This document shows, piece after piece, positions 3,287 to 64,000 of a stretch of DNA of 64,000 nucleotides; positions within the stretch are counted from its first letter, which is position 1; the number at the start of each line of letters is the position of its first letter. Both the position numbers and the translations under genes were made by a program. The notes under the pieces were generated by a model. The model saw nothing but the letters and a program-made list of their open reading frames with translations. It ran no database searches and had not been told where the DNA came from. This stretch comes from Candidatus Wolfebacteria bacterium GW2011_GWB1_47_1 (lineage in GTDB: Bacteria; Patescibacteriota; Minisyncoccia; UBA6257; UBA9933): positions 683,969 to 747,968 of the forward strand of contig CP011209.1 in the NCBI GenBank assembly GCA_001029635.1. The letters are read 5' to 3'.

Positions 3287-3349
3287 GACTCGGTTCGTAG
3301 TAAATGATCTTTTTTGTAAGTATAGCATAGAATGAACAGCGACACACTC

Positions 3350-6300
3350 TTAGCCGCCTATCGTCGACCTGATAAAAATGCTGAAGTCTGAGATATCAAC
3401 CTTCCCATCATCGTTCAAGTCGACTTGCCTTCTTTTTTCGGCATCCGTCGATCCAAATCGCGTCAAGAAAATACTCCAATCCCCAATATCGACACTTCCA
3501 TTATTATTCAAGTCGGCGCGCGTCACCAAAGTACGTGTTACCGTGAACACCTTTAGCGGAGACCAATCACTTTCAATGCCATTTTTATCAACCTGCTTTA
3601 CGCGGACTACATGCCCTCCATATGCGAGTTCGCGCGTATTAACCAGGAGTCGATATGTTCCTCCACTCCCTACCGCCACCTCTGTTTCGACCAGTTGTCC
3701 ATCGATTTCCGCCTTAACCACACTGCCCGGCGCCGCCGAACCGGTAAGCCCAACATTATTGCCGATGGTCACCGTACGCGACACCAACCCCGCGGTCGGC
3801 GCGATATACAAATTCTTCTCTTCGGTCGCACGCGTCACCTTGTCCATGGTGTAGGTCTTGATCTGCGCGATCTTCCCATCTTTGTCCAAGATGGCAAGCC
3901 CAAACGATTCCAATCCGCGCAATGCGCCCGAGAAGTCTATTGTGAACGTACCATCGGCGCGCACTTCGATGTCTCGCTCAAGCGGAATGTCCTGCCCACC
4001 AACACGCGCGAAAAGCGATACGCGAGCCCCCGGATACGCCCGCCCGGTAAAGGTAACGGACGGCGCAACATATACACCGCCGCCACCTCCCCCCCCACCT
4101 ACGGATGTCTGGCGAACAAAGAACATCACATCCTGCGTCGAGGTGATCCCTAATGTCGATGTCGAACCGGTCAAGCGCTCCAGCGACAACTGCACCGTTT
4201 CAGCAACGGTATCTGAGACCGTCACAGTCCCAATGCCGTCCACTATATTTACAAGAGCCCGACCATCCAATTTCATCGGTGACGACGTGATCGTTGAAGT
4301 ACTAAATACAAGATACACATCCTCCTGTACGGTCGCATCCAATCCGCCATCAGCATCCTGTGCCTGGATGATCACGACCGTATTTTCGTTCAGTCCAGCG
4401 TCTGCCGGATTAAGAACCACATACCGATCTGCCACTACCGGAGCCGCCGTCACAATCAATGAATCCGATGCATCGGCGATGCCCGCCGCTCCATCAGCAG
4501 CCGTTGCATTATCAGATGCCGTTATATCCCATGTACCGGCTTCTTCATCGTAATACCAGAATGTCGTTGACGCGAATCCGTTCGCAAGCGTCACGAATGA
4601 AATGGAGCTTGTGCCCGTTTCGGTCGCCTGAAATCGCGCCTGCGCACCCGTTGAACTGGTGTACAGGTACACGAGATTGCTCCCCGAGGTCACTACGTTC
4701 CCATACTGATCCTTTCGCGTTACCGTATATGACGTACTCGTTCCTGCCACTATACTGGTCTGATCGGTGAGCGTGAACTGCGTCACTGTTCCTGCGGTCC
4801 AGATGATCGACGCGGTGTCGGTCACGGCTAATCCTGTTCCCTGTGTATCGGACAGCGCCAAGTTGACGGTCTCCGCTACCGTATCAGTCAACGTAATCGT
4901 TCCTTCGCCATTTACGATATCAATCAATACCTGTCCATTGGTCAGTCCGGTGCCGCTTACCGATGTCACACCCGTGACCAGTGTCACATCATTTTGATAG
5001 TTCGTGTCGATATTTCCAAAATCATCCTGCACCTGCACCGTCACCAACGAAGATGCTCCCGCTGCCAAGGTCTGCGGATCCGGTTCCGGCTCAAATACGA
5101 ACCGGGTTCCGGTCGCAACCTGCACCGATATCATATCGGATGCATCGATGATACCCGCCACTCCATCCGGCGCGGTCGCATTATCCGAGGCAGTGATCGT
5201 GTGATCTCCGCTGGTCTCTTCGTAATACCACGCACTCTGCGATGACTGGCCGCCGCCGATCGTCACGCTCGTTACCACATTGCCATTTGTTGCAGCATCA
5301 TAGAATGATGTGCCTACTCCTGCTGGATTCGCATAGAGATATGCCGTCGTATCGCCCGCTGTTACCGGGTTATTGAACTGATCCTTGCGCACCACCGTAT
5401 ATTGCACACGGCTTGCCGGGTTCATACTGGTCCGATCATTGATCGTGAACTTGGCGATCGCCGCCGGATCGATCACGATATCATCGTATCCGATCACTGC
5501 GCCCGTCTGAGTAGTCACCTGATAAGACCCTGCCACTTCGTTGTAATACCAAAACTGTGCCGAAGCATTCCCGGCATCAATCGCCACTGACGTAATTACC
5601 GAGCTTGAGGTTGAGTTGCTGCCATAAAACGTCCCCGGGGACGTCGTTGGCGTTGCCGAAATACCTACGGTTATCGAACTGCTAGTGATCTGATTATTGT
5701 ATTGATCGGTGCGCGTGACCGTGTACGCGACCAGATCTCCGGCCGTCGCATTGACCACGTTGTTCAGATTCAATTTTGCGAATGCGCCCACTCCGAACAT
5801 CACATCCTGGGTTGATGTAGCCGCCAAGCCCGTGCTCTGCGTGTCCGACAGCGACAATGTCACGGTCTCCGCTACTGTATCGCTTACCTGGGTCGTGCCA
5901 ATGCCACCTTCAAGATCTACCAATACCGGATTGGCGACCGCACTCCCCGTTACCAACAATGTCACATCTTCGGTAAAGCTCGGCACTACCTGGCCAAATT
6001 CATCCAATGCCCGCACGGTCACCGTGATCGAGGCATCCACCGTACCATCGGTCGGATCTACGATCTCAAACCGCACCGCAGTCGGTGTCACTAAAATTTC
6101 ATTTGATGCATCATTAATACCTTCATCTCCGTCCGGCGCGGTCGCATTGTCCGAGACCGTTACAGTCGTTGTTGCCGGCGTATTGCTATAGAACCAGAAA
6201 CTGGTCGTTGCATTGCCCGGTGTAAACGCGATCGCAGTGATCTCGTTACCGCCCGCATCTGTGTCATAAAACTTTGCCGTACTGGTCGGGCTTGCATACA

Positions 6301-9300
6301 TATATGCAGGCGTCGTGCTCGCGCTTACGAAGTTACCGTATTGATCCTTGCGTCCCGCAACAAATTCCTTGCGCGTATTCTGCTCCATATCACCACTATG
6401 CGTCAATGAGAACTGCGCGACCGCTCCCGGCGCAAATACCACATCCTGTGTCGAAGATGCAACATTCAGTCCGGTGCCCTGCGAATCTAATAGCGAAAGG
6501 AATACCGTTTCCGCTATGGTATTCGAAATGGTTGTTGTACCCGATCCGTTGATGATATCCACCAACGTACTGGTCGCATTTACCTGTCCACCCGTGCTCG
6601 ACGCGATTAGCGTTACATCGCTCTGATAATCGGTGATCAAGCGCCCCAGATTGTCCTGCGCCTGCACTACGACCGTGATCGGTGCGTCCACCGTACCATC
6701 GGTCGGATTGATAATCATAAATCGGGTTGCCACCGCATTGACCGCAATGGTACTGGTCGCATCGTTGATGCCCGCATTGCCATCGGGAGCCGTTCCATTG
6801 TCCGACGATGTGATCGTATAGGTGCCCGGCTCTTCATCGTAATACCATGCCGCTGTTGTACTCGCCCCGGACCCGATGATCGCTGAGGTTATCACCGTTC
6901 CATTGGTCGCGGCGTTGTAAAACACAGCCGACGATGAGGTCGATGTCGTATAGAAATAAACGGTCGTATCCGGACCACTGGTCACCGGATTACCGTACTG
7001 GTCCTTTCGTGTCGTCACAAATCCCGCACGATCTCCCACATTGAGCGTTGCCGGTCCGGCGAGCGCAAGCTGCGTGATCACACCATGCGCAAAGGTCGCC
7101 GATGTGGTCGCGCTTACATCCAAACCCGTTCCTTGTGTATCGGTCAGTGACAATGTCACGGTCTCCGCTACCGTATCCGATATGGTCGTTGTCCCTGCGC
7201 CGTTCACGATATTAACCAGTATGCTCTCCGGCGTTGCAGAGTCGCTCGCATTGAGCGTTATGTCGCTTTGATAATTAGTCACTACCGTTCCATTTTCGCG
7301 CTGCGCCTGGATCGTGGCCGTGATCGGCCCATCTACAGTGCCGCTGTACGGAGCGCCACTAAATGCAAACTTCACCGCACCGCGGGAAATGATAAATGGA
7401 GATGTCGCCGTTCCTCCGCCCGGCCCTGGATTGGTCACTTCAACGGTCGATGTTCCAAACGTTGCCAATAATGATGCCGGGATGCTCGTTTCGATGACCG
7501 TCGTCGAACTTGCCGAGATCGTCAATAACGTACCATCAAAGGTCACCGTCGTACCGCCGATAAAGTTCGTACCATCGATCGTTAACGATGTCGTAGCACT
7601 TCCTTCTTCCGCAGTATCGGGGACCAGCGAAGTAATGGTGGGCGTCTGATTTTTTCTCAGGAATGTGACACTTGTCGTTGAAAGCCCCCCACCTGGAGCC
7701 GGGTTAAATGCGGTAATGGTCGACGTGCCCGCGGTCGTCAACATTGCCGCTGGAATGGTGGCGGTTGCCGTCGTTGCATTGATAAGCGTGGTCGTTAGGT
7801 CGTCGCCATCAAAGCGGATCACTGTTGACGATACGAACCCTACTCCCGTTACGGTAATGATCGTATCCGGCGATCCGATGAACGCTTCACTTGGGTCGAC
7901 ACTAGTGACACTCGGAGTCGGGTTTCTTCGGATGAACGTTTGCCCGCCCGATGTTCCTCCGCCCGGGGTCGGATTAAACACAGTCACGGTCGATGTTCCT
8001 ACTGTCGTCAGCATTGCAGCTGGAATGGTGGCGGTCAGTTCGGTCGGGCTTACATACGTTGTTGTCAGATTGCTACCATCAAAGCGCGCGACGGATATCG
8101 CATAGAAATTAGTGCCGGTCAATGTGATCAGTGTATCCCCGCTTCCTACGTTTGCTTCAGCCGGGTCGATACTCGTCAATGTTGGCGCGCGGTAGTGGAC
8201 ATTGGTCGTGGTCGCCGCAGAGCCTCCGCCCGGTGTCGGGTTGGTGACCGTCAATGAGAATGCGCCGGTGGTCGAAGCGACCGCGGCGGGTACCGTTGCA
8301 ACTATCTCGGTCGCGCTGTTTGTCGTTGACACCAGTGTTGCTCCTGCAAACACAACCACTGAACTGCTGTAAAAATTGGTGCCGGTGATCGTAACGACCG
8401 TCTCTTCATTTACATAGATCGGATCTGGTGCGGCGGTAGTGATGGTCGGCGTCTTGTGATGCACATTGAATGTCTGCGTATTGGATGTTCCTCCGCCTGG
8501 AGTCGGGCTGAACACGGTTATCTGCACCGTATCGGTCGCGGTCGTCAGATCGCTTGCGGGAATGGTCGCTTCAAGCGTGGTCGACGATATATAGGAAGTG
8601 ACCCGGTCCGATCCATTGAATCGCACCACGGAGTCGGAGACGAAGAACGTTCCATTTACCGTCAATGTAAATTGCGCGTCGTTCACAAACTTCGTATCGG
8701 GACTGATCCCGGTCGTGGTCGGCGTCGGATTCAGTTTTGCAAATGGCCTTCCTTCGGAAGTTCCCCCTCCTGGGGTTGGCGTGAACACGGTCACAGTCGA
8801 TGTGCCTACTGTCGTCAGCATTGCAGCTGGAATGGTGGCGGTCAGTTCGGTCGGGCTTACATACGTTGTTGTCAGATTGCTACCATCAAAGCGCGCGACG
8901 GATATCGCATAGAAATTAGTGCCGGTCAATGTGATCAGTGTATCCCCGCTTCCTACGTTTGCTTCAGCCGGGTCGATACTCGTCAATGTTGGCGCGCGGT
9001 AGTGGACATTGGTCGTGGTCGCCGCAGAGCCTCCGCCCGGTGTCGGGTTGGTGACCGTCAATGAGAATGCGCCGGTGGTCGAAGCGACCGATGCTGGCAA
9101 CGTCGCCGTGATACTTGTTGAACCGGTCGTGGTGGACGACAAAGTCGTTCCCGCAAATTTCACTACGGAAGCGCCATAGAAGTTAGTGCCGGTGATCGTG
9201 AGTATCGTGGTCTCATTTACATACACCGGGTCGGGGGTGTTGGACGTGATGGTCGGCGCGCGGTAGTGGACATTGAGATTTCTTGTATCCTCACCCCCTC

Positions 9301-11563
9301 CCGGGGTCGGGTTAGTAACCTTGATCGTAGATGATCCGGTCGTGGTCACCAGCGATGCCGGAATCGTTGCCGTGATGCTCGTCGCCCCGGTTGTCGTTGA
9401 CGATACGATCGTATCGTTATAGCGAACGACCGTCACTCCATAAAAATTAGTGCCCGTGATCGTTATATTCGCGTCTTCGTTCACATAGATCGGATCCGGG
9501 GCAATATTCGTAATGGTCGGTGCGCGGTAGTGCACATTGGTCGTGGTCGCCGCACTCCCCCCGCCTGGCGTGCTATTGGTGACTGTCAACGAGAATGCGC
9601 CAGTCGAAGAAGCGACGACGGCGGGTAAGGTTGCGGTGATCAGTGTAGTTCCTGTAGTTGTAGACGATAACGTCGTTCCTGCAAATGCAACGACGGAGTT
9701 GCTGTAAAAATTGGTGCCGGTAATGGTGAGTATCGTGGTCTCATTTACATACACCGGGTCTGGGGTGTTGGACGTGATAGTCGGTGCGCGGTAGTGCACA
9801 TTGGTCGTGGTCGCCGCAGAGCCTCCACCCGGGGTCGGATTGGTGACCGTCAACGAAAACGCGCCGGTGGTAGAAGCCACGGCGGCGGGCAAGGTCGCGG
9901 TGATCGATGTCGAGCCGGTCGTAGTGGACGACAAGGTTGTCCCCGCAAATGCGACGACAGAGTTGCTGTAAAAGTTTGTGCCGGTAATGGTGAGGATCGT
10001 GGTCTCATTTACGAACACCGGGTCGGGTGTATTGGACGTAATGGTCGGAGTCCTATATTTGACGACAAACGCGGCACTCGTCGTCGACGTGCCTCCGCCC
10101 GGGGTCGGATTGGTGACCGTCACCGTTGAGGTGCCGGTGCTTGCAAGGTCTGTCGTCGTCACGGTCATATCGAGCGTGGTCGAATTAACAAACGCGGTTG
10201 TGCGCGCACTCCCATTCCAGTTTGCCACGGAACCGGAAACAAACTGTTGTCCGGTCACCGTCACGGTCGTTGTCGCGTCCCCGATGAACGCTTCATTCGG
10301 AGAAAGCGTTGTGACTACTGGCACGCGGTTGCGCACTACAAAACTCTGTCCACTCGAAGTACCTCCTCCGGGGGTCGGGTTAAAAACGGTAATCGTTGAA
10401 GTTCCCGCGGTCGTCAGGTCGGACGACGGGACTGTAATTTCCAATGTTGTGGAATTGATGAACGAGGTCATACGATCTGAATCATTCCAGCGCGCGACCG
10501 AGGACGCAACAAATCCCGAACCAGTCAAGGTTACGGTCGTTGTCCCGCTTTGTACCTCGGTCGATGTCGGACTAATGGCCGTCAACACCGGGGTCGGATT
10601 TTTTACCGTGATCGTCGGATGTGACGCGATGTTCGTCAGCGCGCCGGAATCATCGAAGCGCGATGTTGTTGTTGCAGTATATGTTCCAAAGACCGACGGG
10701 ACTGTCACGCCGCTTGTTCCACCACCATCACCATATGTCATTGTTGCAGTCCCTAGCGCTGCAAGTTGCAAAAAACGTGCGTTGATCGAGCTTGACGGAA
10801 ATGTCAAAGAACCCGGACCTAATACTATATCGTCCGCGTACACCGTTATGTTATCAAGTGCGGCATTGTTCGCGATACGAAATCCATAACTAACAACCGA
10901 TGTGCGCGTGGTCACTCCGAAATTGATCGTTACGTATGTCCATGTATTCGCAGTGATCGCCGGGATATTAATGGATTCGATCGGGCTCGCTAAATTTGCG
11001 CTGTTGTCGTAGCTGAATTGCAATCTATTTGCCGCAATATCCACATCCGTCCTGATCCAAAATCCGACCGTAGTGTACGACGCCCAATTTTGCGACGTGA
11101 TATTTTTGTACCACACATCCCCATTTGATTCATTGCCATTGATACAGTGGATTGATGCCGCTCCTTCGTGTTTCACCCCTGTATCCGCCGTAGGCGCCCC
11201 TGCGGCACACGCGCTTCCAGCACTCCACCCCGTCGCGCTATCCATATCATCTATCACGTCTGCAATCGTGCCGGTCGTGCTAACCGTCGTATATCCGGCC
11301 GTGCCCGCCGTCCCTTGCGGAGCACTGAAGCCTGCCGGCATTGCAATATTAATACCGCCCGAATTCATAGTCTCGGCGGCAGTAAAGGTAAACGTAAACG
11401 TATTTCCGGTCGAACTCACGTCCGTACTCGTCGGCGTGACGGCATTTGTCCCCGAGCCGTCGGCAGCGTACGCAGGCGTAACGCCAAAAATTACGCTGCC
11501 GATCATTAATCCGACTAAAGTGATTACGCTAAATAACGACACACCTTTTTTTTGGGACATCAT
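3350..11563 (-). CDS. giant secreted dockerin-bearing adhesin (2737 aa) with IPT/TIG-like and Big-like repeats
   Basis: N-terminal signal peptide. About ten ~90-aa repeats (P.ITS..PDPV.VNETT.LTITGTNFY...PGGG) resemble the IPT/TIG fold. Later repeats (DYQSDVTL...IVNG.GT..ISDTVAETV.LSL.D.QGTGL) are Big-like. The last ~60 aa carry two DLNNNGSVDIGDWSIF / DLNDDGKVDISDFSIF segments, a duplicated dockerin type-I Ca-binding repeat. Confidence 0.8.
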   Translation of the reverse strand: MMSQKKGVSLFSVITLVGLMIGSVIFGVTPAYAADGSGTNAVTPTSTDVSSTGNTFTFTFTAAETMNSGGINIAMPAGFSAPQGTAGTAGYTTVSTTGTIADVIDDMDSATGWSAGSACAAGAPTADTGVKHEGAASIHCINGNESNGDVWYKNITSQNWASYTTVGFWIRTDVDIAANRLQFSYDNSANLASPIESINIPAITANTWTYVTINFGVTTRTSVVSYGFRIANNAALDNITVYADDIVLGPGSLTFPSSSINARFLQLAALGTATMTYGDGGGTSGVTVPSVFGTYTATTTSRFDDSGALTNIASHPTITVKNPTPVLTAISPTSTEVQSGTTTVTLTGSGFVASSVARWNDSDRMTSFINSTTLEITVPSSDLTTAGTSTITVFNPTPGGGTSSGQSFVVRNRVPVVTTLSPNEAFIGDATTTVTVTGQQFVSGSVANWNGSARTTAFVNSTTLDMTVTTTDLASTGTSTVTVTNPTPGGGTSTTSAAFVVKYRTPTITSNTPDPVFVNETTILTITGTNFYSNSVVAFAGTTLSSTTTGSTSITATLPAAVASTTGAFSLTVTNPTPGGGSAATTTNVHYRAPTITSNTPDPVYVNETTILTITGTNFYSNSVVAFAGTTLSSTTTGTTLITATLPAVVASSTGAFSLTVTNSTPGGGSAATTTNVHYRAPTITNIAPDPIYVNEDANITITGTNFYGVTVVRYNDTIVSSTTTGATSITATIPASLVTTTGSSTIKVTNPTPGGGEDTRNLNVHYRAPTITSNTPDPVYVNETTILTITGTNFYGASVVKFAGTTLSSTTTGSTSITATLPASVASTTGAFSLTVTNPTPGGGSAATTTNVHYRAPTLTSIDPAEANVGSGDTLITLTGTNFYAISVARFDGSNLTTTYVSPTELTATIPAAMLTTVGTSTVTVFTPTPGGGTSEGRPFAKLNPTPTTTGISPDTKFVNDAQFTLTVNGTFFVSDSVVRFNGSDRVTSYISSTTLEATIPASDLTTATDTVQITVFSPTPGGGTSNTQTFNVHHKTPTITTAAPDPIYVNEETVVTITGTNFYSSSVVVFAGATLVSTTNSATEIVATVPAAVASTTGAFSLTVTNPTPGGGSAATTTNVHYRAPTLTSIDPAEANVGSGDTLITLTGTNFYAISVARFDGSNLTTTYVSPTELTATIPAAMLTTVGTSTVTVFNPTPGGGTSGGQTFIRRNPTPSVTSVDPSEAFIGSPDTIITVTGVGFVSSTVIRFDGDDLTTTLINATTATATIPAAMLTTAGTSTITAFNPAPGGGLSTTSVTFLRKNQTPTITSLVPDTAEEGSATTSLTIDGTNFIGGTTVTFDGTLLTISASSTTVIETSIPASLLATFGTSTVEVTNPGPGGGTATSPFIISRGAVKFAFSGAPYSGTVDGPITATIQAQRENGTVVTNYQSDITLNASDSATPESILVNIVNGAGTTTISDTVAETVTLSLTDTQGTGLDVSATTSATFAHGVITQLALAGPATLNVGDRAGFVTTRKDQYGNPVTSGPDTTVYFYTTSTSSSAVFYNAATNGTVITSAIIGSGASTTAAWYYDEEPGTYTITSSDNGTAPDGNAGINDATSTIAVNAVATRFMIINPTDGTVDAPITVVVQAQDNLGRLITDYQSDVTLIASSTGGQVNATSTLVDIINGSGTTTISNTIAETVFLSLLDSQGTGLNVASSTQDVVFAPGAVAQFSLTHSGDMEQNTRKEFVAGRKDQYGNFVSASTTPAYMYASPTSTAKFYDTDAGGNEITAIAFTPGNATTSFWFYSNTPATTTVTVSDNATAPDGDEGINDASNEILVTPTAVRFEIVDPTDGTVDASITVTVRALDEFGQVVPSFTEDVTLLVTGSAVANPVLVDLEGGIGTTQVSDTVAETVTLSLSDTQSTGLAATSTQDVMFGVGAFAKLNLNNVVNATAGDLVAYTVTRTDQYNNQITSSSITVGISATPTTSPGTFYGSNSTSSSVITSVAIDAGNASAQFWYYNEVAGSYQVTTQTGAVIGYDDIVIDPAAIAKFTINDRTSMNPASRVQYTVVRKDQFNNPVTAGDTTAYLYANPAGVGTSFYDAATNGNVVTSVTIGGGQSSQSAWYYEETSGDHTITASDNATAPDGVAGIIDASDMISVQVATGTRFVFEPEPDPQTLAAGASSLVTVQVQDDFGNIDTNYQNDVTLVTGVTSVSGTGLTNGQVLIDIVNGEGTITLTDTVAETVNLALSDTQGTGLAVTDTASIIWTAGTVTQFTLTDQTSIVAGTSTSYTVTRKDQYGNVVTSGSNLVYLYTSSTGAQARFQATETGTSSISFVTLANGFASTTFWYYDEEAGTWDITASDNATAADGAAGIADASDSLIVTAAPVVADRYVVLNPADAGLNENTVVIIQAQDADGGLDATVQEDVYLVFSTSTITSSPMKLDGRALVNIVDGIGTVTVSDTVAETVQLSLERLTGSTSTLGITSTQDVMFFVRQTSVGGGGGGGGVYVAPSVTFTGRAYPGARVSLFARVGGQDIPLERDIEVRADGTFTIDFSGALRGLESFGLAILDKDGKIAQIKTYTMDKVTRATEEKNLYIAPTAGLVSRTVTIGNNVGLTGSAAPGSVVKAEIDGQLVETEVAVGSGGTYRLLVNTRELAYGGHVVRVKQVDKNGIESDWSPLKVFTVTRTLVTRADLNNNGSVDIGDWSIFLTRFGSTDAEKRRQVDLNDDGKVDISDFSIFIRSTIGG
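7998..8283. repeat. intragenic perfect direct repeat, copy 1 (286 bp, period 807 bp)
   Basis: The DNA at 7998-8283 is identical to 8805-9090. The ORF-track shadow proteins 7940..8257 / 8456..9064 and 7665..8105 / 8598..8912 end in identical peptides. Confidence 0.85.
8805..9090. repeat. intragenic perfect direct repeat, copy 2
   Basis: See copy 1. Both copies encode the same IPT-like module (APTLTSIDPAEANVGSGDTLITLTGTNFYAISVARFDGSNLTTTYVSPTELTATIPAAMLTTVGTSTVTVF). Confidence 0.85.
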
Positions 11564-56778: not shown

Positions 56779-58371
56779 TTACTGTTTTGCCTTAAGCTGC
56801 TCCACGAGCTGCTTCATTATCTCAAGTAGCTGCGTCTGTAATGTTGCTATCTGTGCGCGAAGCGCATCACCACTTGCTGTACTTACTCCCAAGACCTGAC
56901 CGCCTTGCACTTTGTTCAGCTCCGCCCGCGTGAGCGAACCGACAAAACCTGAGGCCGGGTTGATGTTGTGCGCCTTCTGGTATGCAATAACAGCATTCTT
57001 CGTAACCTGCCCGAAGTATCCCGTGGCTGAAAGATTAAAGAATCCTTCCTTTGCCAATACATTCTGCAATTCGGTCACCGTATTGCCAGTCGAACCGATT
57101 GTAAGATTCTCAGAGAAGGCAAATGTTTCAACACCAAGCACCTGCCCAGCGGGCTTTTCGGTAATGGCAGGCTTTGCCGCGTTTACTACAGTGACCGGGG
57201 TCTCTACAACTGTCGACACCACAGCAGGAGCCGTTGTTACTACTGGTTGCCCATACGATCCGTAATACGTATAAGAACCTCCGCCTCCTCCTCCGCTAAC
57301 GACTACTACGGGAGCCGGTGCTGCGACATTAACTGTCCTCGTGCTCGTTGCTCCGTTTCCGGCAAGGTCACTGACCACATAGGTCACAAGATATGTTCCA
57401 GCAACGGTCGTGTTGACCGTGCTTGTAGTTACAATCCTAGCTGTAATATCCCCATCAATATTATCTGAAGACGTTGCCCCGGCATCCGTGTAAGTTCCTC
57501 CCACGGTCATATCGATCGGATTTGAACCAAGGAGGGAAATGGTCGGCGCGGTGGTGTCGGCCGGCGCCGTTGCCATGATCGTGATCATCACGTTGGTGAC
57601 GTTGTTGCTTGTATCGGTCAAGGTGCCCGATACGGTAAGCGATCCTCCCGCAAGGGTCTGGCCCAGTTCAGTCGCAAGGATGTTGTAGCCAAACAATCCT
57701 GCCGTTGTGAGGACATTGGCTCCTGCGACAAGCTCGATCGAAGGTAGCGGCTGCGAGGTGATCTGCAGCGTTGCCGCTTCGGAAACGGTGATACTTCCTG
57801 CTGTTGCCAAGTCGGTATCGGTGGCTTCAAATAAATTGAGGGCGATGCCGCTGTCCGTAACAGTGCCGGTCTTGTTGGCGAATGAGATCGCGGAAATGGT
57901 CGGCGCGGTGGTGTCGGCCGGCGCCGTTGCCATGATCGTGATCATCACGTCAGTGACGTTGTTGCTTGTATCGGTCAAGGTGCCCGATACGGTAAGCGAT
58001 CCTCCCGCAAGGGTCTGGCCCAGTTCAGTCGCAAGGATGTTGTAGCCAAACAATCCTGCCGTTGTGAGGACATTGGCTCCTGCGACAAGCTCGATCGAAG
58101 GTAGCGGCTGCGAGGTGATCTGCAGCGTTGCCGCTTCGGAAACGGTGATACTTCCTGCTGTTGCCAAGTCGGCATCGGTGGCTTCAAATAAATTGAGGGC
58201 GATGCCGCTGTCCGTAACAGTGCCGGTCTTGTTGGCAAATGAGATCGCGGAAATGGTCGGCGCGGTGGTGTCGGCTTCAGCCATTGCCGAATTGATCGGC
58301 AATGCCGAACTCGCAGTGCCTATGAGAGCTACTAATATAAGAACCTGAAACAAGGACTTTATTTTTGACAT
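56779..58371 (-). CDS. secreted repeat protein with Ig-like (DUF5011-like) domain, Gly6 tract and C-terminal peptidoglycan-binding domain
   Basis: Signal peptide. Two near-identical 119-aa repeats. DNIDGDITARIV...TYLVTYVVSDLAGN is Ig-like. GNTVTELQNVLAKEGFF...GYFGQVTKNAVIAYQ matches PG_binding_1. C-terminal coiled coil. Confidence 0.6.
   Translation of the reverse strand: MSKIKSLFQVLILVALIGTASSALPINSAMAEADTTAPTISAISFANKTGTVTDSGIALNLFEATDADLATAGSITVSEAATLQITSQPLPSIELVAGANVLTTAGLFGYNILATELGQTLAGGSLTVSGTLTDTSNNVTDVMITIMATAPADTTAPTISAISFANKTGTVTDSGIALNLFEATDTDLATAGSITVSEAATLQITSQPLPSIELVAGANVLTTAGLFGYNILATELGQTLAGGSLTVSGTLTDTSNNVTNVMITIMATAPADTTAPTISLLGSNPIDMTVGGTYTDAGATSSDNIDGDITARIVTTSTVNTTVAGTYLVTYVVSDLAGNGATSTRTVNVAAPAPVVVVSGGGGGGSYTYYGSYGQPVVTTAPAVVSTVVETPVTVVNAAKPAITEKPAGQVLGVETFAFSENLTIGSTGNTVTELQNVLAKEGFFNLSATGYFGQVTKNAVIAYQKAHNINPASGFVGSLTRAELNKVQGGQVLGVSTASGDALRAQIATLQTQLLEIMKQLVEQLKAKQ
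57562..58275. repeat. in-frame tandem duplication, 2 x 357 bp (near-perfect, 2 aa differences)
   Basis: ORF-track shadow peptides 57618..57830 vs 57975..58238 and 57707..58045 vs 58064..58348 are identical at a 357-bp offset. Confidence 0.8.
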
Positions 58372-58774
58372 AGGATTATTTAGTTAATTAATTTACTCGC
58401 ACAGTGTTGCCATATTATTTGTTTAGATCGGCAATACTCAAACACACTAAAAAACTGATTCATATCAGTCAATATGCTTCGGCGATACGAATAACCATCG
58501 ACACCCGGGCTTATCTCTCCCCAAAAACTTATCTTCTTCCTCTTCTTCTATTCCCTCTGGCCGACTAGATCGTTTCTTACAGTCGCTTTCTTCTCTGTGC
58601 ATCTCAACTACTATAGGTAGCTTGGTCCATAATTTTGACTTTGTCAACTTTTTACCTACCAGTAGGTAGGTGCCTGAAAATGAACCGCGGTCTCTTATTC
58701 GTGGTTGGTTAACCCAACTCAAATAATCTTCCACTTTATCTCTTTTGGTTTTTCCGCATTCTCCTGTATCATAT

Positions 58775-59101
58775 ATGAATATGACACTTATTTATGGAAT
58801 CGATACCACGCAGCCGATCACACCACGTATGGTGCGCGATGCGATCATCGAATGCTTTCATCAAGCGCACGACGAAGAACTAAGAAACAGAACAGTAGAT
58901 GAACAAGTTAACCGGTCATTTTGCGCGGCTATTGTCGAAAAGGCATTCCTTGATATCGGTGCCGATTTTCAAAATCCCACAAAAGAAGATCTCCTTCGAG
59001 TCATCGAGCAGCTTGCCGTTTTTACCATACAATTCCGAGATCCATTAATTGTCGACCGCCATATAGCGGAAATACGACAACTCATCGATAAACTCCCCTA
59101 A
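58775..59101 (+). CDS. hypothetical protein
   Basis: ORF in the AT-rich island. Start uncertain (58745, 58775 or 58781). Confidence 0.4.
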   Translation: MNMTLIYGIDTTQPITPRMVRDAIIECFHQAHDEELRNRTVDEQVNRSFCAAIVEKAFLDIGADFQNPTKEDLLRVIEQLAVFTIQFRDPLIVDRHIAEIRQLIDKLP

Positions 59102-59150
59102 GTAGAAACGGGGGTCAGATACCACTATTTTAGAAAATGTTCGCATTGCT

Positions 59151-60053
59151 CTATCCTCTCTTCAGATAGACTTTAACAAAAGCGCTTTTTAATTCAGCTG
59201 CTTTAGCTGATAAACTATCGGCATTACCAGTCTTAGCTAGTACTAGCACTTCTTCAAGCCTTGCTCGAATTGCTTGGATTTCACTATCGTTAGCCTCCGC
59301 CTCCACTGCCTTTAATTTATCACTTACCCCAGGATAGACATTTATGACGCCGGCCAAGTCTTTTGCGTCAGCTTTTGCAATTATTTCTTCCATTGCGTCA
59401 TGAAAATCGACTAACGATACCGCGAGCATGGAAAATCCATTGCGCTTCAAAATATCCTGGAAAATCGGACGCACCTGTTCAAAATTTATGTGCGCCTCCT
59501 GTAGATCTCCATCCTTAACATCTTCTTCAAGTCCTGTAATAATATCTGACACTTTTACTAGATCGGCATTGAATTGACTATCTTTTTTCAATACATACGG
59601 ATGAAATTTTTGATATTTATTATTGAATAGCGTGAATTCAGAAACCAACTTAGTATAGTTATCCAATGCTTCAACTCTCTTATCTTGCCCCGTATAAAAT
59701 AGCGTTTGCTTATAATAGTTATTCATCCTATTATAATCCTCAAGAAAAAATTTCTTTGTGAAAAAATTACTATAATAACTACCAGCAACTGCAATCACGA
59801 CAAATATCACAATGAATAACCCTAGGACTACTTTAGAAACTTTCTTATTATCTTGTTTTTCCGTATTTATCCCTAATACCTTATACAGACCACAAAAACC
59901 TGTTCCAGCAGTTATAAGCATTGCCGCTGCCATCACGTAGAAAACTACTTGCCCAGTACCACTAAACCAGAACAGCGCAATGATAAATAATATCTCGGCT
60001 AGAATGACTCTCGCTAATCGATCGAGGATATTTTCGTTTGGGATAATTTTCAT
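59151..60053 (-). CDS. membrane protein with N-terminal DUF2892 (YgaP-like) domain
   Basis: RLARVILAEILFIIALFWF...AAAMLITAGTGFCGLYKVLGINT gives two TM helices with the G.C..Y motif of DUF2892. A ~200-aa C-terminal soluble region has no recognised domain. Confidence 0.5.
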   Translation of the reverse strand: MKIIPNENILDRLARVILAEILFIIALFWFSGTGQVVFYVMAAAMLITAGTGFCGLYKVLGINTEKQDNKKVSKVVLGLFIVIFVVIAVAGSYYSNFFTKKFFLEDYNRMNNYYKQTLFYTGQDKRVEALDNYTKLVSEFTLFNNKYQKFHPYVLKKDSQFNADLVKVSDIITGLEEDVKDGDLQEAHINFEQVRPIFQDILKRNGFSMLAVSLVDFHDAMEEIIAKADAKDLAGVINVYPGVSDKLKAVEAEANDSEIQAIRARLEEVLVLAKTGNADSLSAKAAELKSAFVKVYLKRG

Positions 60054-60184
60054 ATGCTATAAGTATATTCTTATATTTATCTCAAATAAATAGGCGCCCA
60101 CTATTCCTCAAAATACGTCGAAGGCGAATGTATTTTTTGCTCCGCCCAATGAGCGACGTTAGAGCCTCATTTTCTCTACATAAT

Positions 60185-60215
60185 TTATAAAAACCGCCCT
60201 CATTACTGAGAGCGG
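60185..60215 (-). terminator. rho-independent terminator
   Basis: CCGCCCTC-ATTACT-GAGAGCGG (one mismatch) with a U-run on the minus strand. Confidence 0.5.
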
Positions 60216-60238
60216 CTGCGTGATTTTAAATCAGTTCT

Positions 60239-60619
60239 TTATCCTTCTACTTCAACTTGAAAACCACCGTAAGCCATTCGCTTCATATCAAAAGGCATCA
60301 GTATATTTTTGTGTCCTTCCATCTGATTATTCATGTCTTTCATCACTTTAGCATTGACCTCATCTCGATGCTCTTTGGATTTAAAGACTATGAAAGAAAA
60401 CCAAACTATATCCTCACTTGTTGCTCCAGTCATTTCAGGAAATGCACGTGCTTTTTCACCCCCCATTTCCTGTGGAACAAGATCGTCACCTCGACATTCA
60501 TAGTATTCAAGCGCACCATACTTTATCCAAGTATCACGGCCACTTTCTGCCATTTTCTTGTATTCTTCAGCTTTGTCCTTTGGAACTACAAGTACAAATC
60601 CGTCTACATATTTTGCCAT
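60239..60619 (-). CDS. DUF1428 (YbaA-like) protein
   Basis: MAKYVDGFVLVVPKDKAEEY... Whole-length resemblance to the DUF1428 family. Confidence 0.6.
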   Translation of the reverse strand: MAKYVDGFVLVVPKDKAEEYKKMAESGRDTWIKYGALEYYECRGDDLVPQEMGGEKARAFPEMTGATSEDIVWFSFIVFKSKEHRDEVNAKVMKDMNNQMEGHKNILMPFDMKRMAYGGFQVEVEG

Positions 60620-60894
60620 ATTTTATTTACCACCTTTATAATAGTTATTATTACTATTAATATAGCATTTACCAAAATCAACCACAACGCATATTTTTTG
60701 AAATAGTAACGGAACAAGATGTAACCCTGGATTTTGAGGTTATTTTTCTCCCTGGAAGGGAATCGCCCCCGTCGTCGCTTTCGCAAGCTCAAGTTCCTCT
60801 CAATAGGGCTTCCGCCCTCTTGTCCTCGCTATGCTCGGTCACCCCAACGGGGAAATTACAATTTCCCCGACCCCCTAAGAGGTTTCTCATCTGC

Positions 60895-60947
60895 ACCCGC
60901 AAAACAAAAAGCAAAAATACGATCCATGCGGACCGTATTTTTGCTTT
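60895..60947 (-). terminator. strong minus-strand intrinsic terminator with no annotated gene feeding it (possible sRNA 3' end)
   Basis: 14-bp stem AAAGCAAAAATACG / CGTATTTTTGCTTT with a 12-nt loop, followed on the minus strand by TTTTGTTTTG. Confidence 0.5.
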
Positions 60948-60977
60948 CTGCTCGAATATCAGGACGCGTTTCGAACT

Positions 60978-61057
60978 TTTGACTGGGTTGGGGCGTTTCC
61001 GGATCCAGGAATTACGCTGCGACAAATCAATGGGCTATTAGCACTGGTATAAATACC
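60978..61057. repeat. degenerate ~80-bp direct repeat, copy R1
   Basis: TGACTGGGTTGGGGCGTTTCCGGATCCAGGAATTACGCTGCGACAAATCAATGGGCTATTAGCACTGGTATAAA aligns at about 75-80% identity with 61585-61666. Confidence 0.6.
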
Positions 61058-61131
61058 CCGGATCTCGTCCGGAGCTTTTGGAAACATATAAATTTGACCC
61101 CGCCTTCCTGCTGGCTTATGCTTGGGCTTAA

Positions 61132-61521
61132 ATGGACCCAACGACATTTTATACTACATATTTCTTTCCATCGATTTGCCAAATTGTCACTTCTATACCA
61201 ACGTCAGAACGAAGCGCATTTTGGCTTATTATAGGACTTTTGGGATTTTGGGGATGGGTTGCTGTGATTATCGCCTTTCTTATTTGGGGTGCAATTGAAT
61301 TAACTCTTCGCCCAGGCAAATCGGCGAATGGTTGCACCTGGGAATTTAATGTAGCCGTCGGAAGCTTCACCTTTGCAGTATTCCAGTCGATTACTTATTT
61401 ATTTTTTAGTAAATTATTTGAGCCTTCGATCTACTGCACAATTTGGCCTAATCTTAGTTATTTACTTGTTTTTCCCTTAGTCTGGCTCTTCCTTCGGGGA
61501 ATTGGCTTTTGGGTATATTAG
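61132..61521 (+). CDS. small hypothetical membrane protein
   Basis: 129 aa with three or four TM helices. Lies between the two direct repeats. Low coding confidence because the region is AT-rich. Confidence 0.35.
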   Translation: MDPTTFYTTYFFPSICQIVTSIPTSERSAFWLIIGLLGFWGWVAVIIAFLIWGAIELTLRPGKSANGCTWEFNVAVGSFTFAVFQSITYLFFSKLFEPSIYCTIWPNLSYLLVFPLVWLFLRGIGFWVY

Positions 61522-61584
61522 CTTTTCTTTACTTTTTAAATTGGCAAGTGCAAGGTAAGGCCCCGTGAGGCATAATTTACACAC

Positions 61585-61666
61585 TTCTGACTGGATTGAG
61601 GCGTTCCCTGATCCTACTGTTACGCTTAGGCAAATTAATGCGTTATTAGCACTAATACAAAACTCA
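61585..61666. repeat. degenerate ~80-bp direct repeat, copy R2
   Basis: TGACTGGATTGAGGCGTTCCCTGATCCTACTGTTACGCTTAGGCAAATTAATGCGTTATTAGCACTAATACAAA. Confidence 0.6.
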
Positions 61667-61687
61667 AATTGTTAAAAGTCTGTAAAA

Positions 61688-62260
61688 TCAAAGCTCACTA
61701 ATATTATCGTCTTCATTAATTTTCAATTCTGATACTGTATTTTTAAAAAAGGCAACAACTTTAGCAAAAACTTCGCCTGGATGATCATCTCCTTGGTCGA
61801 ACGCCAACCGTTCATTTTTGGGATCTACAAATAATTGGGTTTTTGTCTTGTCCTTCTTATGCCCAGCTAAAACCATCAATTGCACTTCCTTTTTCTTATT
61901 CCTCGACAACTTAACATCCACCCAATAATCATTGTCTTTTAGCTCTTCTCGCTGTATGCGTATAAGTTCACCATCTATGTTGATTATTTCCGCGTCTTTA
62001 TATTTTTGCGACTCAATAATATCCAAAAGGTCAGAGACTTTCTCCTCTATTGGTTTATTTAAAGTTATTTTAAAATCACATCTGGAACAGCAGTATTTGT
62101 ATTCACCAATAGAATATACTTCTTTAGATTTCTTTAATTTACAATTACACTTCTGCTTTGGGCATAATGCAATTTGAGAACAAGGGTTTCCATTAATATC
62201 ATAATCAATGTCCCAGTGTAGCCCCTCCCATAAATATAATTTTATTTTTGAGTAATCCAT
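61688..62260 (-). CDS. hypothetical protein with N-terminal Cys-cluster (zinc-ribbon-like), coupled to the HerA-like ATPase
   Basis: C-x6-C-x4-C-x-C ... CC-x2-C cluster in the first 60 aa. The K/E-rich remainder has no nuclease motif I recognise. Start lies 10 bp after the upstream gene's stop. Confidence 0.5.
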   Translation of the reverse strand: MDYSKIKLYLWEGLHWDIDYDINGNPCSQIALCPKQKCNCKLKKSKEVYSIGEYKYCCSRCDFKITLNKPIEEKVSDLLDIIESQKYKDAEIINIDGELIRIQREELKDNDYWVDVKLSRNKKKEVQLMVLAGHKKDKTKTQLFVDPKNERLAFDQGDDHPGEVFAKVVAFFKNTVSELKINEDDNISEL

Positions 62261-62270
62261 CTTATTCTAT

Positions 62271-64000
62271 TTATATTTCCTCGCCTTCTAATGGATCCTG
62301 TTCAGTATCACTACTTATAAAAAACTTCTGATCATTCAACTTAATAATTACTGGCTGCTTCAATCTCAACCCCTTTCCGATTGTAATAGCACATCTTTCT
62401 TCGAGGGTCGACAATGCGTCAGCATAATCTTTCCCAATATAATTGGAAAGGAAATCTTTCCCGGTGTCATCAAAAACTCTGAGTGCAAAAATTGTATTAC
62501 ATTGGTTTAAGATACTCTTGCTTATATTTGCCGTTCTCTGAGTAATAACAAAACAACCAAGTCCATATTTCCTACCCTGTAGTATGACTTTTGCGGTTCC
62601 GCTTGTTGCCCTTTCTTCGCCTTCATTTGAGGCTGACGACCATTCTGGGACAAGAGAATGCGCCTCCTCGTACACTAAAAGACACCGAGGCTCTTTAGTG
62701 CGACCTCTTTTCTTGCAAATATCCAGCGCAATTTCTGAAATAATCCTTGTTATCTCGGCAACGCTTATATCTCTCATTGGGGCCTGATCTTCCCAATCAT
62801 TTTGCCCAGGACCAATTTTTTTCGGCTTTATGTCATTAGTTTGAATACTTACAAAAAAATTCTCTGGATTTATTATTAAAATCTTGGAGCCGGTCGTGGC
62901 ATCAATAAATTTAACCAATTCCTCCTCTATTGCCATCTTAAACTCCTCATAATTGCCACCCTTGTGCTTATCTTTATTAATCCTTACATAGCTTGAGGAA
63001 ATCACTGTATTTATCCGACTCTCATCTATTGAAGATGCGCCGCATCCATAACGAGCGAGCTCCTCAGTATATTCATTTGTAATATCTATACAAATTACTT
63101 TGGCTGATGTTTTCTCTACTATCTTTGTAATAAGTTCGTAAGTAAGACAAGATTTTCCTATCCCCAAAATACCCAAAATTGCTGTATTATGTGTAATTAA
63201 TGAGGCATAATCTTTTATAGGTATTTCTAAATCCGTTTCAGGCAATCTTCCTATAGAATTATGGGCTATTCGCTCGATTTCTTCAGACCCCACTGTCCCG
63301 GAGTAGGCAAAAAATACCGGCGAATAAATATCCGGGACCCATTTGCTAACATCTAATTCTTTCAGTTCCCTGTTATATTTACCCAACTTTCTTGCTATGC
63401 CTATAACGTATCCATGTGTGTCAAAATTCTCCAAATGCTCTTCCTTTGTATTCCCATTTATAACCTGATATAGCACTTCATCTCCATATATTGTTGTTTT
63501 TAAAATAGATCCTTCTGAAACATTCTTTTCTTCGCCAATATCCCTTATAACTGAAAAATTAACTAAATTTATATTCGATCCAGCGGCAATATAGCCAACA
63601 AAATTATCCTTATTCTTAAATAATATATTTTCATAAATTATATCTTTTTCATCTGCTCCTAATGAGTCGGCATCGATTAAATACACCCCATTATCTTGTG
63701 CAAAAATAGAACGATCATCAGTTATTCTTTTTTTAGACTGAAGATTTATCCTAATCGGATTGCCTTCCTCATCGCGAAAAAGATAGACACTTAGCCATCT
63801 CTTATTCAATAGATATTTCTTATTTATCACCATTCCAACGGATCCAATATTTGAGCTTGTTTCCATGGCAACAAGATCGCCATACTCAGCATCTCCATTG
63901 TTCTTTTTGTCATAAAAATCAATCTCTACTTTATATAGAGATGGATTTTCGCATCCGATTGCAACCCCCAATCTTTCACCCTTCTTATTCTTAAATACCC
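62271..64000 (-). CDS. HerA-like ATPase of the FtsK/HerA superfamily (5' end probably beyond window)
   Basis: Walker A GILGIGKS. Walker B-like LLVYEEAH. FVITQRTANISKSILNQCNTIFALRVFDDTGKDFL matches the HerA ITQRP...SQC.T.I.LR..N..D arginine-finger region. Beta-rich N-terminal ~230 aa, as in the HerA HAS-barrel. The listed start at 63971 is TTG, and the frame stays open to position 64000. Confidence 0.65.
   Translation of the reverse strand, partial: VFKNKKGERLGVAIGCENPSLYKVEIDFYDKKNNGDAEYGDLVAMETSSNIGSVGMVINKKYLLNKRWLSVYLFRDEEGNPIRINLQSKKRITDDRSIFAQDNGVYLIDADSLGADEKDIIYENILFKNKDNFVGYIAAGSNINLVNFSVIRDIGEEKNVSEGSILKTTIYGDEVLYQVINGNTKEEHLENFDTHGYVIGIARKLGKYNRELKELDVSKWVPDIYSPVFFAYSGTVGSEEIERIAHNSIGRLPETDLEIPIKDYASLITHNTAILGILGIGKSCLTYELITKIVEKTSAKVICIDITNEYTEELARYGCGASSIDESRINTVISSSYVRINKDKHKGGNYEEFKMAIEEELVKFIDATTGSKILIINPENFFVSIQTNDIKPKKIGPGQNDWEDQAPMRDISVAEITRIISEIALDICKKRGRTKEPRCLLVYEEAHSLVPEWSSASNEGEERATSGTAKVILQGRKYGLGCFVITQRTANISKSILNQCNTIFALRVFDDTGKDFLSNYIGKDYADALSTLEERCAITIGKGLRLKQPVIIKLNDQKFFISSDTEQDPLEGEEI

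Follow-up and report, generated by a model that had tools for sequence, protein, structure and literature searches.

A HerA-clade ATPase with a fused membrane domain and a neighbouring zinc-ribbon protein at one end of an AT-rich island in Candidatus Wolfebacteria

At the end of the window, the 64,000-nucleotide (nt) stretch of the Candidatus Wolfebacteria bacterium GW2011_GWB1_47_1 chromosome (contig CP011209.1) analysed here, the gene of a HerA-like ATPase is closely followed by the gene of a small protein of 190 amino acids (aa) with an N-terminal cysteine cluster. The explanation favoured here, on balance, is that two defence-island genes, independent of each other and horizontally mobile, have come to be neighbours at one end of an ~11-kb AT-rich element integrated in the chromosome. 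By its motifs, its Pfam model, its sequence matches in the PDB and its fold, the ATPase falls in the HerA clade of the FtsK-HerA superfamily; it is a self-contained membrane-embedded ATPase with intact Walker A and Walker B motifs; we refer to its family as the membrane-HerA. The small protein carries a C4 zinc ribbon, judged from an alignment and a structure model, and is predicted to bind metal. Neither family is described in the libraries that were searched. The main features of the locus, in window coordinates, are as follows.

61688–62260, minus strand: 190-aa open reading frame (ORF), the small protein, with a C4 zinc ribbon at the N-terminus, then a linker helix, then a beta-rich C-terminal domain
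62271–64000, minus strand: HerA-like ORF, C-terminal 576 codons (beta-barrel region and P-loop ATPase), open at the window end
63150–63173, minus strand: Walker A P-loop, G468–S475 (GILGIGKS; read as LGILGIGKS), from the sequence
62658–62675, minus strand: Walker B block, V634–H639 (VYEEAH), from the sequence
62078–62164, minus strand: zinc-ribbon core, C33-P-x3-C38 to C58-x2-C61, from 29 homologs and the beta-hairpins of the model

The HerA stop codon occupies 62271–62273 and the ATG of the small gene lies at 62260, which confirms the 10-nt spacing given in an earlier reading of this DNA made without database searches (the sequence-only reading). A scan of this gap for promoters and terminators returned nothing informative, and the pair is probably co-transcribed in the window. 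The ATPase gene continues past the window end. In the full contigs L001–L004 it encodes 767 aa (L001 7687–9990; a window position equals 72261 minus the L001 position), with its true start 574 nt past the window end, and because these contigs show the longer gene, the TTG at 63971 is internal and not a start. An identical 190-aa protein is recorded in many assemblies, among them Candidatus Wolfebacteria genomes and a 633-kb JGI contig.

Occurrence of the two genes, together and apart

Loci of the small gene were sampled, 18 from genomes and 36 from metagenomes, yielding 42 distinct loci besides that of the window, to which exact look-up of the closest relatives added three, for a total of 45 others. 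A tblastn search with the 767-aa protein found a membrane-HerA in none of the 42 scanned loci, and a membrane-HerA profile hidden Markov model run over all collected loci matched only in the window's own genome and in locus L071. The small gene therefore adjoins a membrane-HerA in 1 of 45 other small-gene loci, and L071 is likewise the single one among 11 other membrane-HerA loci to hold the small gene, which the remaining ten lack; with the window included, the pairing is seen in 2/46 small-gene and 2/12 membrane-HerA loci. Co-occurrence in most genomes that carry either family, as a two-gene system would show, is not observed.

The arrangement in L071 is itself informative. The closest relative of the small protein (80% identity) is encoded there with a ResIII helicase gene on one side and, starting 4 nt 3′ of it on the other, the gene of a 660-aa DUF87 protein, an order reversed with respect to the window, and a large serine recombinase lies near the pair. 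The DUF87 protein aligns over its full length with the window ATPase, membrane motif included, at 25% identity. Because the order is reversed and the small proteins share 80% identity against 25% for the HerA proteins, the two genes assort independently, and a pairing that is rare, occurs in both orders and shows discordant divergence is not the signature of a co-evolving two-gene system. The sequence-only reading had taken the small protein for a dedicated partner or effector of HerA, a proposal that these neighbourhoods do not support. It is not strictly true that the small gene never accompanies a HerA elsewhere, given L071; the data still oppose an obligate pair.

Away from the window, the membrane-HerA is usually solitary and found in restriction-modification (R-M), abortive infection (Abi) or cyclic oligonucleotide-based antiphage signalling system (CBASS) surroundings, often near serine recombinases. 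On the Arcobacter plasmid CP146529.1 (L069, 49364–65610) it sits within a type I R-M operon with the order hsdS, hsdM, RhuM, hsdS, CD-NTase, SLATT, membrane-HerA, a relative of a prokaryotic Argonaute (pAgo)-associated domain, and hsdR. In Aminobacter it is flanked by AbiEi/Eii and two reverse transcriptases; at another locus it follows HpaII R-M and Vsr genes and precedes a Pif1 helicase, and at yet another a DEDDh-DinG fusion begins 3 nt after it. A 213-aa multi-pass membrane ORF lies upstream of HerA in the island and overlaps the HerA start by 11 nt. The further upstream component suspected from sequence thus exists as a reading frame but is not conserved, with no counterpart in any other membrane-HerA locus; similarly, eight membrane-HerA loci were tested for the other genes of the L001 island, and none is conserved there.

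Two side observations concern these neighbourhoods. The Arcobacter operon carries four passengers in a row, namely RhuM, a CBASS-like CD-NTase with SLATT, the membrane-HerA and a pAgo-associated/CARF-like match, followed by hsdR and SprT, and is thereby a stacked defence operon. Helicases recur beside or near the membrane-HerA, as Pif1 (L023, 8310–9698), the DEDDh exonuclease-DinG fusion (L073, 4536–7412) and ResIII/SNF2 (L071, 353–2665), and could form a facultative partner class.

The small gene keeps different company. In 15 of the 42 scanned loci it is immediately 3′ of type I R-M genes, namely hsdM, hsdS or a fusion of the two (hsdM-S), frequently accompanied by hsdR and RhuM. Some recognised defence gene adjoins it in 23/42, many of the remaining contigs being too short for neighbour calls. 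Effector-type genes of variable identity are often placed 2–50 nt 3′ on the same strand. They encode a family of ~220–270 aa with an R-N-[DE]-x-[LI]-[AG]-H motif (the HEPN Rx4-6H signature; RNxxxH) in four loci, Shedu SduA_C in two and NOV_C in two, and in other loci HEPN_Cthe2314, AAA_13, a trypsin-like protease, a 978-aa RelA_SpoT protein or an OLD-family ATPase-TOPRIM nuclease. Several small-gene loci, including L009, L019, L021 and L052–54, have no same-strand downstream gene. PMC11411939 and PMC3710099 document defence genes embedded in type I R-M loci. Like such passengers (PrrC/RloC anticodon nucleases, RhuM, HEPN proteins), the small gene lies between hsdM/hsdS and hsdR or immediately behind them, frequently with RhuM alongside, and the Arcobacter membrane-HerA shares the embedded position. 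The zinc-ribbon family differs from these passengers in having no recognisable nuclease or ATPase domain and in not being confined to R-M loci, none of which adjoins it in the window.

Two further neighbours of the small gene are recorded here as side observations. In L006 (Moraniibacteriota, 2846–3667), a 273-aa stand-alone protein encoded ~185 nt 3′ of the small gene shows, by eye, an FtsK/SpoIIIE-like P-loop (GGVSGSGKS...LILIDPK). No other small-gene neighbour apart from the membrane-HerA resembles an FtsK-HerA-superfamily ATPase, and this protein has no match to the membrane-HerA profile. In L052, L053 and L054, the hsdM-S fusion 5′ of the small gene splits into consecutive fragments under translation table 11, which suggests pseudogenes or an alternative genetic code, such as the UGA recoding of some candidate phyla.

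The recurrent position of the small gene just 5′ of HEPN, PD-(D/E)xK-type, OLD, RelA_SpoT, AAA_13 and trypsin-like genes (2–50 nt, same strand) invites the view that it supplies the antitoxin-like or regulatory first half of a two-gene unit whose toxic effector varies, orphaned here by loss of that effector and placed beside HerA by accident. One homolog, P0226 (380 aa), in which the small domain is fused to a C-terminal HEPN_AbiU2-like domain (E=4e-6, RHKRIAH), is the sole informative domain fusion found in the family and is in keeping with this view, as is the window itself, where the next gene runs in the opposite direction between the copies of an 80-nt repeat, suggesting rearrangement. 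We nonetheless judge this view quite unlikely: the loci named above with no same-strand downstream gene do not fit it, conservation is very high over unrelated downstream genes, against partner-specific binding, and neither a DNA-binding helix-turn-helix (HTH) nor a known antitoxin fold was detected in the small protein. In Panacea and SocA, which are hyperpromiscuous antitoxin-type accessory domains, one small conserved gene precedes many unrelated effector or toxin domains. The small gene resembles them in lying upstream of diverse effectors and in its one HEPN fusion; it is unlike Panacea in sequence and fold, and several of its loci have no downstream effector.

Several points weigh against the independence of the two genes and against the defence role proposed for each. 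The neighbourhood sample is modest and skewed to short metagenomic contigs. Among 46 loci, the gaps are 10 nt (window) and 4 nt (L071), both to a rare ATPase family; these two tight adjacencies may exceed chance and leave room for a facultative functional link. Identity within the small family stays at 45–80% across very different neighbours, so that direct binding to each neighbour seems unlikely and the small protein may act entirely alone. A large serine recombinase lies within ~6 kb in 4/12 membrane-HerA loci (L001, L025, L062, L071), and an Xis-like HTH_17 gene is found directly 5′ of the membrane-HerA in two (L062, L073), associations that also fit a function in handling the DNA of the mobile element itself.

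From the two tight adjacencies follows the possibility of a genuine, if facultative, two-gene defence system in which the small protein would serve the membrane-HerA as partner, effector or sensor. Such a system would agree with a 10-nt gap in which no promoter- or terminator-like site is predicted, with the independent L071 locus, where the closest small homolog lies 4 nt from a divergent full-length membrane-HerA, and with the rarity of both families, which makes two tight adjacencies suggestive. It is unlikely in view of the partner's absence from 44/45 other small-gene and 10/11 other membrane-HerA loci, the reversed order, the disparity of 80% small-protein and 25% HerA identity and the lack of a recognisable catalytic domain in the small protein; moreover, each of the two genes is common among Patescibacteria, where genomes are small and chance adjacency within a defence island is more likely.

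The recombinases raise a second possibility, that the membrane-HerA is the element's own DNA pump, acting in transfer or partition after excision like the FtsK-like TraB of actinomycete integrative elements or TcpA, with the small gene as unrelated cargo. A membrane anchor is here combined with a ring-translocase fold, and to the recombinases of L001, L025, L062 and L071 and the Xis-like genes of L062 and L073 can be added that L062 resembles a minimal module of recombinase, HTH and ATPase. We consider this improbable, as the ATPase is of the HerA clade, with FtsK_SpoIIIE unmatched and TrwB sub-threshold, and the Arcobacter (type I R-M operon) and Aminobacter (Abi and reverse transcriptase) copies lie on plasmids typed non-mobilizable. 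The L001 recombinase and other island genes find no match in other membrane-HerA loci, several of which have no recombinase at all. Serine recombinases are also present in small-gene loci that have no HerA, and for this reason they may merely mobilise defence cargo. Two independent defence-island genes remain the preferred explanation.

The membrane-HerA ATPase

The ATPase matches the Pfam model of the HerA central domain, DUF87 (PF01935), with a score of 38 bits (cut-off 23.2, E=2.5e-9), and its homologs carry precomputed PF01935 annotation. In PADLOC, at least nine HerA models match, the best at E=1.6e-28, with the matches in the C-terminal ATPase block. Sequence comparison with solved structures gives only HerA proteins as nearest matches, some in anti-phage HerA complexes and others Sulfolobus HerA. 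The HerA families of NCBIfam also match, far under their equivalog cut-offs. The family comprises at least 790 sequence clusters, is widely transferred and is abundant in Patescibacteria.

Conservation follows the expected motifs. G468 through S475 (Walker A) are invariant in 27 homologs and E636, E637, A638 and H639 (Walker B) are invariant among homologs; together with the QGRKYG and ITQRT...FALRVFDDTGK blocks, these motifs are invariant or nearly so in 27–40 full-length homologs, and the ITQRT...FALRVFDDTGKDFL block is the best-conserved stretch of the family. Since the window protein is incomplete, fold analysis used the AlphaFold2 (AF2) model of a 62% identical homolog, P0106 (mean predicted local distance difference test score, pLDDT, 77), which has eight N-terminal helices, a beta-rich barrel region (~201–425) and an ATPase domain (~430–756). 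The 50 best Foldseek matches of this model in the PDB are all HerA chains, with 450–720 aligned columns; they include Sulfolobus HerA, SIR2-HerA, DUF4297-HerA, NurA-HerA and TdpAB, and 4d2i (Sulfolobus HerA) is the best. The sequence-only reading fares well here. Its assignment of a HerA-like ATPase agrees with DUF87, PADLOC, PDB sequence and Foldseek alike, the motifs that it read (GILGIGKS, a Walker B-like block and the ITQRT segment) are conserved in the family, and the barrel-like region that it placed before the ATPase corresponds to the model strands at ~201–425.

An FtsK/TraB or VirD4 identity was considered and rejected. Membrane-HerA resembles FtsK, Streptomyces TraB, TcpA and VirD4 coupling proteins in having N-terminal membrane helices followed by an FtsK-HerA-superfamily P-loop ATPase, and some of its loci share their association with integrative elements. 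However, the FtsK_SpoIIIE Pfam domain is not matched at E<=1, TrwB_AAD_bind reaches 15.7 bits against a cut-off of 20.5 over 49 residues around the P-loop only, AAA_10 is similarly sub-threshold and limited to the P-loop region, the structural neighbours are HerA, and no relaxase, replication or type IV secretion system (T4SS) genes lie nearby.

The first ~190 residues of HerA, encoded outside the window, include 5–6 strongly hydrophobic helices. A motif in this domain, YIVEPFFTKPSDAI, is kept across homologs of 45–62% identity, and F65, P68 and N74 are invariant; the domain is well conserved, which argues that it is more than a passive anchor. No description of a HerA defence gene with a fused membrane domain was found in the domain libraries or literature searched, a search that did not take in the FtsK-HerA survey of Iyer et al. 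2004.

Among known systems, SIR2-HerA (Nezha/Gao19) and DUF4297-HerA share with the window ATPase its clade, its fold of barrel and P-loop ATPase and its defence-island setting, and their complexes rank with its best matches in both sequence and fold. They differ in lacking the ~190-aa fused membrane domain, whereas the membrane-HerA has it and is usually a single gene. Against the corresponding NCBIfam equivalogs (HerA_antiphage, NF042943 and NF042944), the membrane-HerA scores 68.6 where the cut-off is 800 and 55.5 where it is 850, in matches confined to the C-terminal ~125–145 residues. Neither a SIR2 nor a DUF4297 domain occurs among the genes called around HerA on the full contig, and the small protein has no PADLOC match. 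The NurA-HerA end-resection machine of archaea and bacteria shares the ring-translocase fold, as the top match to Sulfolobus HerA illustrates. In contrast to that housekeeping system, the membrane-HerA is membrane-embedded, mobile and patchily distributed, scores 49.5 against a cut-off of 970 for NF040819 (helicase_HerA) and 42.6 against 800 for NF040937, and has no NurA-like gene in its locus.

The zinc-ribbon family

The cysteines of the small protein are spaced C27-x5-C33-x4-C38-x-C40...C57-C58-x2-C61. Across 29 homologs, C33, C38, C58 and C61 are invariant and C40 is kept in at least 90%; because only four cysteines are invariant (C33-P-x3-C38 and C58-x2-C61), the cluster is best described as a C4 zinc ribbon of the form CPxxxC...CxxC. 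The model places ribbon strands at 26–32, 41–44, 54–58 and 64–67 (pLDDT ~90). A zinc-ribbon-like cluster had been seen in the sequence-only reading, and this part of its description stands; its C-x6-C spacing at the start of the cluster does not, and C27, C40 and C57 are not invariant.

After the ribbon come a helix and a beta-rich C-terminal domain that is highly conserved in the 29 homologs, with the string ...AEIINIDGELIRVQRE...DYWVDVKISKNKKGE.QLMVLAGSKK...QLFLDPKNERL.FDQNNDHP... A profile search of 1.84 billion representative proteins returned 201 clusters of the family, nearly all stand-alone proteins of 170–200 aa, and the family is strongly conserved between distant phyla. Searches of Pfam, NCBIfam, PADLOC and PHROGs gave nothing above threshold for the small protein, the family profile had no match among PDB sequences at E<=10, Foldseek found nothing in the BFVD viral library at E<=0.001, and the plasmid collection held no homolog. 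Glyco_hydro_32C and RecO_C were considered as identities and rejected, their matches being weak and under cut-offs. No recognisable catalytic domain, whether nuclease or ATPase, was detected, and no description of the family was found in the domain libraries or literature searched.

The island and a proposed mechanism

The GC content falls from ~0.47 in the bulk of the window to 0.33–0.40 across the locus (~0.35) and stays low for ~8 kb past the window end, up to a 549-aa large serine recombinase. The island spans ~11 kb (L001 217–10573), from window position 61688 to ~8.3 kb past the window end. Between the recombinase and HerA lie ~10 small ORFs, mostly predicted to encode membrane or secreted proteins and assigned to no family, save one DUF6804 and one matching phrog_29674. 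No replication, relaxase, T4SS, capsid or canonical defence gene was recognised in the island, and Rfam has no family within 58300–64000. The following features adjoin the small gene.

61583–61661, no strand assigned: direct-repeat copy A, ~80 nt, immediately 3′ of the small gene
60975–61053, no strand assigned: direct-repeat copy B, ~80 nt, 76% identity to copy A, beyond the 129-aa membrane ORF
61132–61521, plus strand: 129-aa membrane ORF, between the repeat copies

The imperfect ~80-nt direct repeat matches twice in the window, compared with no match in 100 shuffles, and on the plus strand both copies encode ...DW(I/V)(E/G)AFPDP..TLRQIN.LLAL with a stop within a few codons. The repeat could derive from duplication of the 3′ end of a gene and represent an attachment-site (att) or target-gene remnant at the island edge. 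A search for att-type repeats bounding the island found only this one, around the 129-aa ORF. Of the AT-rich island with flanking repeats described in the sequence-only reading, the low GC content is thus borne out, while the repeat brackets the 129-aa ORF and not the gene pair. The mobile, defence-type setting proposed there is supported, in that the low-GC element is bounded by a serine recombinase and both families occur elsewhere among defence genes.

FtsK/HerA-superfamily ATPases also package the DNA of viruses with internal membranes (PMC4158269), and the island could on that ground be a prophage with a packaging ATPase of this type. Weak PHROG matches, to phrog_7035 and to a terminase-labelled phrog, and the many small membrane proteins encoded by the island point that way. 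We rejected this reading, which is very improbable: scans of INPHARED phages and IMG/VR returned no homolog of the ATPase or its small neighbour, a search of the island for capsid or other virion genes detected none, and the ATPase has a multi-pass membrane domain of its own and occurs inside R-M operons.

Two further features of the window lie away from the island. At 56779–58371 (minus strand), a 530-aa secreted protein contains two near-identical ~120-aa tandem repeats (...TAPTISAISFANKTGTVTDSGIALNLFEATD...) followed by Bact_surface_Ig-like and PG_binding_1 domains, and at 3350–11563 (minus strand) a single 2737-aa ORF occupies a stretch with elevated GC content (0.52–0.56).

For the two genes as independent members of a defence island, we infer an oligomeric state, a defence activity and roles for the membrane domain and the small protein as follows. 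By analogy with solved HerA proteins, the membrane-HerA would be a ring-shaped, ATP-driven DNA-handling motor, with its membrane domain fused at the barrel end of HerA. In published complexes, the barrel end is the docking site of NurA, SIR2 and DUF4297. The membrane domain may therefore serve as a built-in effector or anchor in place of a separate docked partner, and HerA would sense or engage foreign DNA at the membrane and either block its entry or damage the membrane, aborting infection. The small protein would serve adjoining defence genes promiscuously, as a sensor, regulator or adaptor, without being specific to HerA; its operonic position, diverse effector neighbours and HEPN fusion are the reasons for proposing an accessory role. 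The strongest form of this scheme, with the membrane-HerA as a new single-protein anti-phage system whose membrane domain replaces SIR2, DUF4297 or NurA as effector at the barrel face of the ring, and the zinc-ribbon protein as a new promiscuous sensor or adaptor module for HEPN, Shedu-type, OLD, RelA/SpoT, type I R-M and occasionally membrane-HerA effectors that here modulates HerA, is put forward tentatively, as a possibility short of probable.

The main value of the pairing result is negative, in that tight adjacency at a single locus is insufficient to define a system. To our knowledge, HerA ATPases in defence have been known only as one half of a two-protein machine. If active, the membrane-HerA would represent a new coupling of a DNA-sensing motor to a membrane outcome, in a family abundant in Patescibacteria, a group about whose immune repertoire little is known. 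The zinc-ribbon family, being conserved across phyla, free of fold or family matches and recurrent in type I R-M operons beside different effectors, may well have a general accessory or regulatory role in defence islands, for which it is a good candidate.

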